Positions 48,523-50,959 of a stretch of 64,000 bases of DNA are shown here, one piece after another. Position 1 is the stretch's first letter, and each line of letters opens with the position of its first letter. The position numbers and the translations under genes were made by a program. The notes under the pieces are model-generated. The model was not told the origin of the DNA. It searched no databases and was given only the letters and a program-made list of their open reading frames with translations. This stretch comes from Escherichia coli (lineage in GTDB: Bacteria; Pseudomonadota; Gammaproteobacteria; Enterobacterales; Enterobacteriaceae), in the NCBI RefSeq assembly GCF_044647545.1, contig NZ_CP172818.1. One strand, written 5' to 3'.

Positions 48523-48552
48523 CTCCGCGCCTTTCAGCGCGGAGATTTCTTT
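48523..48552. terminator. Hairpin between convergent ghxQ and ygfS (likely bidirectional terminator)
   Basis: ctccgcgc-ctttca-gcgcggag followed by atttctttcac. Confidence 0.6.
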
Positions 48553-49043
48553 CACAGAGGATTCTCACCGCTGGCAACAATACGCTGCTGGCGGACTCGC
48601 CTGAGTTCTCTTTCAGTAAGCAACTGCAGCGCCTGTGTTGGGCAAGATTCAACGCAGGCTGGCCCCTCTTCCCGCTGTTCACAGAGATCGCATTTCACGA
48701 TTTGTTGCCGGGTATCCCCCGGCAACGACTGAATGGTGATCATTCCAAACGGGCACGCACTCACGCAACTCTGACAGCCAATACAACGGGCAGAATTGGT
48801 CTGCACCACCTGCTCGCCCATCGTCAGCGCCCCCACGGGGCAAGCGCTAACACAAGGGGCGTTTTCACACTGATGGCACATCACCGGCGCACTGATGCTG
48901 TCCAGTCGCTGTACCTTCAGCCGGGGTAAAAAGACATCGGCATTCAACTCCTGTTCTGAAGGGTGAGCGACCACACAGGCTACTTCACAAGTACGGCAGC
49001 CAATACAGTCAGCCGGATTAACGATAATTAACGATTTCATCAC
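48552..49043 (-). CDS. ygfS: 4Fe-4S ferredoxin-type electron transfer protein
   Basis: 163 aa with four CxxCxxCxxxCP-like clusters; overlaps ygfT by 4 nt. Confidence 0.88.
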
Positions 49044-50959
49044 GATGCCTTCGTATCAAACAGAGTTAACATATCGCGCGCCGCCTGCCTTCCTGCGGCC
49101 ATTGCAGTGACAACCAGATCCGCGCCATGAACAGCATCACCACCAGCAAAGACTTTTTTCAGATGCGTCTGGGTAGGTAAATACCCGACGTCACCGGTTT
49201 GAATCAGGCCCCATTTATCGAGTTTAATTCCGCTGCCCTGCAACCACGGCATGGCATGCGCCTGGAAACCAAAGGCCATAATGAGAACATCGGCGGGCAA
49301 TTCAAACTCTGAACCCGCTACCGGACGAGGACGACGGCGACCATCCGGCCCCGGCTCACCCATGGCGGTACGAATCAGGCCCACCGCAGTTAAACGCCCA
49401 TCTTCGTCACAAGCGATATATTGCGGCTGAACATTGAATTGAAACTCGACACCTTCCTCGCGCGCATTGACCACCTCTTTGCGCGAGCCCGGCATACTGA
49501 CTTCATCACGACGATACGCGCAGGTCACGCTGGCGGCATTGAGGCGGATGGAAGTCCGCAAACAATCCATGGTCGTATCGCCACCGCCCAATACCACGAC
49601 TCGCTTACCTTCCACATCCGTCAGCGGATACTCTTCAGACTCCGGCAATCCCATGAGCTGGCGGGTATGGGCCGTCAGGAACGGTAGAGCCTGAATGACA
49701 CCGGGCACATCTTCATGCGGCAGATCTGCTCGCATCATCCCGTAAGTCCCCACGCCGATGAAAACTGCATCATATTCAGAAGTTAAATCGCTAAAGGTAA
49801 TATCGCGGCCAATTTCACAGTTAAGATGAAAGTCGATTCCCATTGCGGTGAATATCTCTCGCCGCTGGCTTAAGACTGTTTTATCGAGTTTGAAAGGAGG
49901 AATGCCAAAAGTCAGCATACCGCCAATTTCTGGATGACGATCAAAGACATCAACCTGAACTCCCGCGCGCACCAGGATATCAGCACACCCTAATCCTGCA
50001 GGCCCAGCGCCAATCACCGCCACTTTTTCGCTACGGGGAACCACCATGCTGACATCGGGACGCCAGCCCATCGCCAACGCAGTATCGGTGATGTAGCGTT
50101 CCAGATTCCCGATAGAGACTGCGCCAGAGTGATCTTTCAAAGTACATGCGCCTTCACAAAGACGGTCCTGTGGGCAAACTCTGCCGCAGATTTCGGGTAA
50201 GGAACTGGTCTGGTGGCAAAGTTCTGCCGCTTCAATAATCTTTCCTTCCTGTACCAGACGGATGTAATCCGGAATAGCGTTATGCAGCGGGCAATGCCAG
50301 TTGCAGTTAGCTTTTTCGGCACAATAAACACAGCGGTCACTCTCATAAGTCGCTTGTTGTGGATCCAGCCCGCAATAGATTTCGCCAAAGTGGGTTTTCC
50401 GTTCACTCGCTGAAATTTTATCTGCGCCTTTACGCGAGTTAATGGGAAGCAACGCTGCACTGCGAGATGGCTGAGCGTCTGATGACGCTTTTCCTGCTGC
50501 CGTTTTGCGCTGGCGGGCCACCTTTATCTGCTGCAACCCTTTATCGTCCATCAGCCGTAACGCCTGTGTTGGACAGACTTCAATACAGGCTTGCGTGCCG
50601 GAACTGCGCTGGTTACAAAGGTCGCATTTCTGCGCAATCGTATCGACCATCTCAACGACGCCAAAGGGGCAAGCGATTGCGCATCTTTTACAACCAATAC
50701 ATTTTTGCTCGTCCAGTTGTACGCTATCGGGCTGGAAAGTCAGAGCATTAACCGGACAAGCCGTAACGCAAGGGGCATTGTTGCAGTGATGGCAGGCCAC
50801 CGGATTCGCAGCCTGGCCTTTCCCTACAACGTGGATACGTGGTCGAAAGTCACTGTGACTCAGCGGCCAGTTTTCTTGATTATGTGCCATCGCACAGGCA
50901 ATTTCACAAGCATGACAGCCTATACATTCCGCAGCTTCAGCAGCGATAAACTTATTCAT
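49040..50959 (-). CDS. ygfT: Fused ferredoxin / NAD(P)H-dependent oxidoreductase (glutamate synthase small-subunit-like)
   Basis: ORF 49040..50974; N-terminal 4Fe-4S clusters similar to ygfS, followed by a GltD-like FAD/NAD domain ([14 protein letters not shown]). Confidence 0.88.

Follow-up and report, generated by a model that had tools for sequence, protein, structure and literature searches.

FdhF, formate dehydrogenase H (FDH-H), docks on the ferredoxin subunit HycB in formate hydrogenlyase (FHL) (PMC9474812) and on a HycB3/HycB4-type subunit in HDCR, a CO2 reductase that is hydrogen dependent (PMC11570645). Ferredoxins in HDCR (PMC11570645) and in the aldehyde oxidoreductase (AOR) AorABC (PMC10413684) are joined via their C-terminal helices into a wire of iron-sulfur clusters, and the four-cluster ferredoxin wire of AorABC is capped by a subunit that binds flavin adenine dinucleotide (FAD) and nicotinamide adenine dinucleotide (NAD) (PMC10413684). 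The Fdh3 enzyme of Thermococcus onnurineus is a formate dehydrogenase (FDH) dependent on NAD phosphate (NADP); besides its catalytic subunit it has one that resembles NfnB/GltD and a pair of near-identical 18-kDa iron-sulfur proteins, and its formate:NADP+ activity has been measured (PMC8965080). In Escherichia coli, AegA and YgfT have been described as a ferredoxin-like N-terminal domain joined to a GltD-like domain (Vanoni 2021, PMC8097209), and YgfT has been listed as a multimodular fusion (Serres and Riley 2005, PMC555942). Here we analyze ygfT (uacF) and the adjacent ferredoxin gene ygfS in a window of 64,000 nucleotides of E. coli (RefSeq assembly GCF_044647545.1, contig NZ_CP172818.1), and we propose how their products might carry electrons from formate into the anaerobic degradation of urate.

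E. coli degrades urate anaerobically by a reductive pathway that requires four electrons (PMC12507026). Purified XdhD-YgfM converts urate to 2,8-dioxopurine with NADH, and YgfK dearomatizes this product with NAD(P)H (PMC12507026; PMC12990295). As the work of Iwadate and Kato (2019) is cited, urate degradation that depends on formate and FDH-H requires aegA and ygfT, and the pair studied here has been described as the urate-induced “operon uacF-ygfS.” Urate strongly induces ygfT. The question at stake is how the four electrons enter the pathway, and with it the formate dependence in E. coli; urate degradation by gut bacteria is relevant to human urate balance and gout. Earlier papers (Pinske 2018; Serres and Riley 2005; Vanoni 2021) have reported both the paralogy of the two proteins and the fused architecture of YgfT. 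What is new is their context: a fused gene followed by a translationally coupled gene for a free ferredoxin is conserved across Enterobacterales, such pairs of fusion and free ferredoxin recur, and fdhF is linked to the pair in three other genera.

Ferredoxin and flavin modules of YgfS and YgfT

A sequence-only reading of this DNA had placed both genes between positions 48552 and 50959 and had held that the N terminus of YgfT carries the same pattern of 4Fe-4S cysteines as YgfS. Both minus-strand genes were found there (Table 1), and pairwise alignment bears out the similarity: YgfS residues 1 to 159 are collinear with YgfT residues 1 to 157, with 74 of 163 positions identical (45%, E = 2e-41 by BLASTP). 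The observed score of 144 bits compares with 18 ± 3 bits, and a maximum of 30, for 200 composition-preserving shuffles of YgfS, which rules out a chance match arising from cysteine-rich composition. YgfS and YgfT 1-129 share four motifs with 16 cysteines in each protein (CxxCxxCxxxC, CxxCx4Cx3CP, CxxCxxCxxxCP and CxxCx8-9Cx3CP), and Pfam detects Fer4_11 in both, at residues 53 to 137 of YgfT. Across 60 family members, 14 of the 16 cysteines are invariant and the other two (C129 and C133) are conserved in at least 90%. A set of 96 YgfS orthologs includes 81 that share less than 70% identity with the E. coli protein. All 16 cysteines are at least 96% conserved in this set, also in proteins that otherwise show just 50 to 60% identity, and only 21 positions in total reach at least 98% conservation. 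The analysis confirms YgfS and the YgfT N-terminal domain as homologous ferredoxin modules of the HycB/HydN type, each with four predicted [4Fe-4S] clusters. They are relatives of HydN and not HydN itself: the HydN equivalog NF007658 has a cutoff of 260 bits, and against it YgfS reaches 138 bits and YgfT 120. The alignment runs on into the helix and linker that follow the ferredoxin module of YgfT (YgfS 141-159 against YgfT 137-157); the linker is poorly conserved among homologs.

Beyond the linker, the GltD-like NAD(P)H/FAD domain named in the sequence-only reading is recovered. Pfam places Fer4_11, Fer4_20 (188-298) and Pyr_redox_2 (312-623) in that order along YgfT, and the protein scores 847 bits against TIGR01318 (gltD_gamma_fam; cutoff, 483) and 1495.7 bits over residues 1 to 639 against NCBIfam NF009451 (cutoff, 1154), which qualifies it for the equivalog. 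RefSeq names it “formate-dependent uric acid utilization protein.” Its cysteines, the FAD-binding GxGxxG, the NADPH site and the arginine pair in YRRD align with Azospirillum brasilense GltD (6s6s_G) and Thermotoga maritima NfnB; such an Arg-Arg pair binds the 2'-phosphate of NADP(H) (PMC8965080). The FAD and NADPH motifs are invariant across 33 homologs. In the same 33-sequence alignment the Fer4_20 cysteines C210, C213, C219, C223, C262 and C268 are invariant and C272 is conserved in at least 90%; C258 is not conserved. In E. coli AegA (locus L001, 7547-9526, minus strand), a threonine occupies the position of C258, around LPEITGRVCPQD, where YgfT and GltD have the first cysteine of the second Fer4_20 motif (“EICGRVC”); one GltD-type cluster of AegA may, judging by these residues, have a different ligand set.

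YgfT thus appears to be built of electron-transfer modules only: a predicted four-cluster ferredoxin domain, two GltD-type clusters, FAD and an NADP(H) site. Neither YgfT nor YgfS contains a substrate-converting domain, and the Pfam and NCBIfam assignments are purely those of electron transfer, in keeping with the earlier view of the pair as the makings of an electron-transfer chain. The gene for a large-subunit partner, gltB, is absent from the region around ygfT, where the neighbors are ygfS, ghxQ and uacT. Glutamate synthase was considered as an identity for YgfT and rejected, there being no gltB alongside.

Residues 187 to 636 of YgfT are 58 to 60% identical to GltD of gammaproteobacteria among the matches listed. 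This identity to gammaproteobacterial glutamate synthase small subunits suggests a module taken over from gltD within this lineage, which would not be an ancient separate branch. The closeness of this part (49040-50398) to true GltD (loci L027-L088) is unusual. The same figures bear on the possibility that the GltD-type FAD of YgfT works in the manner of Nfn, splitting or merging electrons among NADPH, a low-potential branch made of the ferredoxin modules and FdhF, and a second acceptor of higher potential. Such bifurcation or confurcation has been raised for AegA and YgfT in a review (Vanoni, PMC8097209), and the C-terminal part of YgfT does match bifurcating NfnB (4ylf_B, 5jca_L; E about 1e-85). 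YgfT is nevertheless much closer to nonbifurcating GltD, by the identity and the TIGR01318 score given above, and the operon encodes no NfnA-like partner with a [2Fe-2S] cluster and FAD. We therefore regard bifurcation as very improbable.

The relationship between the two ferredoxin copies is old. Within E. coli, YgfS scores 142 bits against the N-terminal domain of AegA (45% identity), 138 against YsaA (46%), 134 against that of YgfT (45%) and 130 against HydN (40%), and the closest partner of the YgfT domain is that of AegA (154 bits); AegA and YgfT are 55% identical over their full length. NCBIfam profiles rank in similar fashion for YgfS, with 169 bits for the AegA N-terminal part, 140 for that of YgfT and 138 for HydN, no curated cutoff being reached. 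In a neighbor-joining (NJ) tree of 45 sequences (159 columns, 200 bootstraps), the deep nodes of which were unresolved, YgfS orthologs formed a clade with 82% support and YgfT N-terminal domains one with 95%. The YgfT and AegA domains grouped together in 53% of replicates, and YgfS and the YgfT domain were exclusive sisters in 2%. At the DNA level, identity at third codon positions is 0.36, and blastn matches are limited to short patches at the cysteine motifs; third positions are near saturation. Because the similarity of YgfS is spread evenly over the AegA domain, YsaA and HydN, the sister grouping has 2% support and third-position identity is 0.36, YgfS and the YgfT domain are ancient paralogs within the HydN/YsaA/HycB/AegA family and not the product of a duplication made at this locus. 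The fusion of ferredoxin and GltD modules is older than the split between YgfT and AegA.

An alternative hypothesis derives ygfS from the 5' part of ygfT through a tandem duplication at this locus, or from the splitting of a two-ferredoxin protein, with fast divergence since then. The two genes are adjacent on one strand and collinear over the full length of YgfS, YgfS evolves faster than its neighbors, and the tree leaves room at its base. Set against this are the 2% bootstrap value together with the grouping of the YgfT domain with that of AegA, the higher profile score of YgfS for AegA than for YgfT, its equal distance to YsaA and HydN, and the free partners found beside AegA-like genes in Pectobacteriaceae, which imply that the pair predates this locus or is independent of it. 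We consider this origin most improbable. A recent or local tandem duplication was rejected by the paralog matrix, the NCBIfam profiles, the NJ bootstrap and the codon-position identity. The “domain duplication” of the sequence-only reading, taken as an event at this locus, accordingly falls away: the copies are not each other’s closest relatives and have little similarity at the DNA level.

Structural relatives, gene pairing and linkage to fdhF

The best match in the PDB is HycB (7z0s_B) for YgfS (E = 6.6e-32) and for the ferredoxin domain of YgfT (E = 1.7e-30). Further sequence matches to YgfS and to the YgfT ferredoxin domain are HycB3 and HycB4 (7qv7), chains E and G of 9mqx, and AorA (8c0z_C). 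The AlphaFold2 model of YgfS has a predicted local distance difference test (pLDDT) score of 94 and a predicted template modeling (pTM) score of 0.86, and Foldseek aligned it to the same relatives with template modeling (TM) scores of 0.73 to 0.82 (0.77 to 0.82 for HycB, HycB3 and HycB4). It contains a predicted C-terminal helix at residues 143 to 159, and a homologous helix lies at 139 to 155 of YgfT, just before the linker, in a low-confidence model. That full-length YgfT model, built with 33 sequences (mean pLDDT 72, pTM 0.67, cluster-binding loops below 50), is too weak for fold search or domain arrangement. No fusion of ferredoxin and GltD modules was present among the solved proteins matching YgfT in the PDB search.

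The closest solved relatives of YgfS are iron-sulfur partners of pterin enzymes from other families, namely FdhF-type formate dehydrogenases, formate dehydrogenase N, polysulfide and arsenate reductases, and tungsten AORs. The PDB and Foldseek match lists contain no partner of a hydroxylase of the xanthine oxidase family. The two best PDB matches to FdhF itself are the E. coli FHL and HDCR entries. PDB 9MQX was considered as an FDH complex and rejected, being an electron-bifurcating tungsten aldehyde oxidoreductase.

The gene for a YgfT ortholog (67 to 68% identity) directly precedes that for a YgfS ortholog (55 to 59%) in Klebsiella, Mixta, Enterobacter and Serratia; the stop and start codons overlap as TGATG or ATGA, and in every case the pair lies inside a purine/urate cluster. 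A comparable arrangement occurs in Brenneria, Pectobacterium and Acerihabitans, in which an AegA-like gene is followed by a gene for a free ferredoxin of 172 to 175 amino acids that is closest to HydN, either overlapping or 20 nucleotides away. This pair has a nucleobase (NCS2) permease gene 1 to 1.5 kb downstream in both Brenneria and Pectobacterium. The aegA gene of Enterobacteriaceae stands in the order narQ-aegA-nudK with no adjacent free ferredoxin. In Arsenophonus nasoniae, ygfT is interrupted by a stop codon (603 amino acids) and no ygfS follows (L012, 10001-11938). Fused homologs outside Enterobacterales were scanned for with two peptide patterns, and among the matches listed all beyond the top 18 loci were plain GltD; a representative search with YgfS returned 1 fused protein among 150, the rest being almost only free ferredoxins.

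Klebsiella, Enterobacter asburiae and two Serratia have an ortholog of fdhF next to their urate permease gene; it is oriented divergently from ygfT-ygfS, at a distance of about 2 kb. These copies are 86 to 90% identical to E. coli FdhF and keep the TGA selenocysteine codon at position 140. They sit between the gene pair of the xanthine dehydrogenase (XDH) type and the urate permease gene.

A proposed route from formate to NAD(P)H

We postulate that YgfS and YgfT form a path from formate to NAD(P)+, running from FdhF through YgfS, the N-terminal domain of YgfT and FAD, and that the resulting NAD(P)H is used by XdhD-YgfM and YgfK. We give this model, the best available, about an even chance of being right. 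YgfS would act as the adaptor on which FdhF docks, and the ferredoxin modules of YgfS and YgfT would stack into a chain of iron-sulfur clusters. The fused ferredoxin domain would relay electrons to the two GltD-type clusters, FAD and NAD(P)+, and NAD(P)H would supply the electrons for both reductive steps in anaerobic urate degradation, those of XdhD-YgfM and YgfK. In the AegA counterpart, HydN or YsaA would be the free ferredoxin that docks FdhF. In this scheme we infer the physical complex, the FdhF-binding module, the acceptor and the direction in which electrons move.

Two-hybrid assays showed strong binding of AegA to YsaA and HydN, and binding of HydN, YsaA and HycB to FdhF (PMC6004506). 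Because AegA binds YsaA and HydN and not detectably FdhF, and these two ferredoxins and HycB bind FdhF, the free ferredoxin is the candidate dock. In the model, YgfS in particular is tied to FdhF because its best solved homologs are subunits that dock FdhF and because fdhF adjoins the urate permease gene in Klebsiella, E. asburiae and Serratia. The partnership of YgfS with YgfT is proposed because the stop/start overlap is conserved and the same kind of pair recurs for AegA-like genes; NAD(P)H is the proposed outlet because XdhD-YgfM uses NADH and YgfK is described as NAD(P)H dependent. To the sequence-only reading the electron donor and acceptor were unknown, which is out of date given the genetics that tie YgfT and AegA to formate and FDH-H (Iwadate and Kato 2019, as cited) and the presence of fdhF beside the pair in three genera.

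Several points weigh against this route. No signal was detectable between AegA and FdhF in the two-hybrid assay, and deletion of aegA left the dye-linked activity of FDH-H unchanged (both PMC6004506). Liu et al. observed urate degradation in rich medium, under conditions called very different from those of the formate-dependent assay. The complex of YgfS, YgfT and FdhF is putative. In E. coli, where fdhF lies elsewhere in the genome, and in Yokenella and Mixta, fdhF is not linked to ygfT-ygfS. In Enterobacter sp. Bisph1, ygfS is absent and a terminator-like hairpin lies directly 3' of ygfT (L011, 11938-12005), so YgfS cannot be a strict requirement in every genome. Finally, if the urate couple is near the classical xanthine/urate potential of about -360 mV, a value that does not refer to yanthine, a direct low-potential route bypassing NAD(P)H would be thermodynamically favored.

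The Bisph1 genome also speaks for a reading in which YgfS is a dispensable, partly redundant spare with no specific role, any free ferredoxin of the HydN type (HydN or YsaA) being able to serve YgfT. In addition, E. coli AegA is reported to work without an adjacent partner, and YgfS evolves faster than its neighbors (the E. coli and Klebsiella proteins are about 56% identical, versus 68% for YgfT and 79 to 81% for SsnA and YgfK). A spare part would hardly be expected to keep its coupling and all 16 cysteines across genera, to form its own well-supported clade, or to lie in a region present in 5,319 of 5,426 complete E. coli genomes, and we think this reading quite improbable. A specific role of YgfS as FdhF adaptor is preferred because of the conserved coupling, the pair in Pectobacteriaceae and the linkage to fdhF.

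The sequence-only reading had the chain feed the molybdenum hydroxylases. In its direct form, YgfT would take electrons from NAD(P)H or formate and pass them via YgfS into the iron-sulfur centers of XdhD (or YgfK), as a donor of lower potential than NADH. Purine hydroxylation couples near -360 mV do lie below NAD(P)H, ygfT-ygfS is always inside the purine/urate cluster beside an XDH-type enzyme, and urate induces ygfT. For XdhAC, the clostridial enzyme that reduces urate, the physiological donor is still listed as unknown (PMC12990295). On the other side, XdhD, which copurifies with YgfM as its FAD subunit, is active with NADH; YgfK contains an FAD/NAD(P)H module of its own; an FAD domain is fused to the XDH homologs in Klebsiella, Enterobacter and Serratia; and the solved YgfS homologs in the match lists include none from the xanthine oxidase family. 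Direct feeding of the hydroxylases is thus less likely than the NAD(P)H route, and we judge it unlikely; the earlier proposal is not supported in this respect, XdhD-YgfM using NADH and YgfK being described as NAD(P)H dependent.

More broadly, we speculate that enterobacteria possess a so far unrecognized soluble formate:NAD(P)+ oxidoreductase, made of FdhF on YgfS on YgfT, in which FdhF “moonlights” from hydrogen production for gut urate degradation. The combination of a fusion and a free ferredoxin would be ancestral to the AegA/YgfT family, with HydN or YsaA serving AegA in trans in E. coli. This wider proposal is tentative, and we put it at somewhat less than an even chance. If YgfS does act as the FdhF adaptor, FDH-H would have an NAD(P)-linked use in E. 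coli beyond hydrogen production, and engineered uricolytic probiotics might need ygfT-ygfS and fdhF besides the catabolic genes.

Gene map, regulation and comparison with known systems

The stretch from 48400 to 51200 is 100% identical to several sequenced E. coli strains. The junction between ygfT and ygfS reads GCATCGTGATGAAA. The sequence-only reading was right that the genes overlap; its lengths of 163 amino acids for YgfS and 4 nucleotides for the overlap correspond to an alternative GTG start at 49043, and in RefSeq (K-12 and a strain 100% identical over the queried stretch) ygfS starts at the ATG at 49040, which gives 162 amino acids and a 1-nucleotide TGATG overlap. Ortholog N termini (MTxFI...) fit the ATG. 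With either start, ygfT-ygfS is a two-gene operon with translational coupling. The maximal ygfT open reading frame (ORF) extends to an ATG at 50974; the homologs all begin with MN(K/R)F, which corresponds to the ATG at 50959, and this codon has an AAGGGA Shine-Dalgarno sequence in front of it. Two plus-strand ORFs, 48438-48929 and 50591-51013, lie across the ygfS and ygfT coding frames. The genes ghxQ and ygfS are convergent, and a perfect 9-bp G+C-rich hairpin fills nearly the whole 35-bp gap between them; from its sequence it is probably a shared bidirectional terminator. An Rfam scan of 48000 to 53200 returned zero RNA elements.

Table 1. Coordinates of ygfT, ygfS and their parts in the window, and of related genes at comparison loci (L numbers)
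Feature	Coordinates	Strand	Description and evidence
ygfS	48552..49040	-	Predicted free four-[4Fe-4S] ferredoxin, HycB/HydN type, 162 aa; ORF and translation, Pfam Fer4_11 and related families
ygfT (uacF)	49040..50959	-	Predicted fused Fe-S flavoprotein, 639 aa; ORF, Pfam, NCBIfam equivalog NF009451
YgfT residues 1-137	50549..50959	-	Ferredoxin module paralogous to YgfS, 16 Cys; BLASTP, Pfam
YgfT residues 138-187	50399..50548	-	Helix and variable linker joining ferredoxin and GltD-like modules; counterpart of YgfS C-terminal helix
YgfT residues 188-298	50066..50398	-	Fer4_20, two more [4Fe-4S] motifs (C210/213/219/223 and C258/262/268/272); Pfam PF14691, E = 7e-37
YgfT residues 312-623	49091..50026	-	Predicted FAD and NADP(H) binding module; Pfam Pyr_redox_2, TIGR01318
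Stop/start overlap GTGATG, ygfT-ygfS	49038..49043	-	Translational coupling; sequence read
Weak sigma-54-type element TATGCCCATTTATTGCA upstream of ygfT	51006..51022	-	Sequence read and published ChIP-seq site
G+C-rich hairpin, ghxQ/ygfS gap	48522..48545	.	Pattern match
AegA-like fusion and free ferredoxin	L013 10001-12537, L015 10001-12543, L022 10001-12556		Brenneria, Pectobacterium, Acerihabitans
Selenocysteine fdhF in purine/urate cluster	L006/L007 3778-5919, L010 5738-7879, L090 3826-5964, L092 4003-6144	-	Klebsiella, Serratia, Enterobacter asburiae

Published chromatin immunoprecipitation sequencing (ChIP-seq) of sigma-54 assigned site OS32, TATGCCCGTTTATTGCA, to ygfT with a low motif score of 4.5, and other genes of the urate cluster also have sigma-54 sites (Bonocora 2015, PMC4591121). 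The element upstream of ygfT, TATGCCCATTTATTGCA, is OS32 with one base changed. YgeV, a sigma-54 activator encoded in the cluster, has been called the urate regulator UacR; together these observations suggest that YgeV/UacR controls ygfT. A scan of the window with the sigma-54 consensus gave 46 matches versus 42 expected, not above chance. A sigma-54 promoter from the consensus scan alone was rejected, and only the published ChIP site was retained.

The neighboring uacT, which encodes a urate:H+ symporter (51395-52833, plus strand), lacks 10 bp that K-12 has; the deletion lies between short GCTGG repeats, with the junction at about 52482/52483. The deletion splits the ORF into 51266-52489 and 52393-52833. 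RefSeq flags uacT as “frameshifted” in a strain that matches the queried stretches at 100%, and about 44 to 46 of 5,352 complete E. coli genomes carry the allele. Because uacT is frameshifted, urate uptake for the pathway linked to ygfT may be impaired in this lineage.

Among known systems, AegA (E. coli b2468), a paralog of YgfT, has the same three-module architecture and the same NCBIfam name. It differs in standing alone in Enterobacteriaceae; in Pectobacteriaceae an AegA-like gene has a coupled partner that is closest to HydN. HydN and YsaA are of the same family and size as YgfS (40 to 46% identity), but YgfS falls below the HydN cutoff, belongs to a separate clade and has a start codon that overlaps the stop codon of ygfT. 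HycB (PDB 7Z0S/7Z0T), the best solved homolog of YgfS (TM score 0.77) and of the YgfT ferredoxin domain, contains four clusters and provides the docking site for FdhF. Its long loop contacting HycF and HycE is an alignment gap in YgfS and YgfT, and HycB feeds a membrane-bound hydrogenase and not a flavin/NADP module.

HycB3/HycB4 (7QV7), AorA-AorC (8C0Z) and the small subunits of Wor-Bfu (9MQX E/G) illustrate how paralogous or repeated four-cluster ferredoxins serve as a wire carrying a pterin enzyme, and YgfS shares with the HDCR and AorABC ferredoxins a predicted C-terminal helix. YgfT differs from these systems in that its flavin module carries one covalently attached ferredoxin copy and is of the GltD type, not the AorC type. 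That module has most in common with GltD, whose cluster, FAD and NADPH motifs it keeps; YgfT has no GltB partner, and its N-terminal ferredoxin module stands where glutamate synthase has its large subunit as redox partner. Fusions like YgfT also occur in the beta subunit of the Moorella NADP-dependent FDH (sfrB2) and in Geobacter SfrB. Fdh3 of T. onnurineus, as described in print (PMC8965080), has the same parts as the proposed FdhF, YgfT and YgfS assembly, including the Arg-Arg pair, and serves as a biochemical precedent for it. Fdh3 is archaeal, uses tungsten and cysteine, and has a gene of its own for each part, all of them in the operon of the FDH, while in E. coli the ferredoxin and flavin modules are fused in YgfT, with a second ferredoxin, YgfS, encoded immediately behind it.

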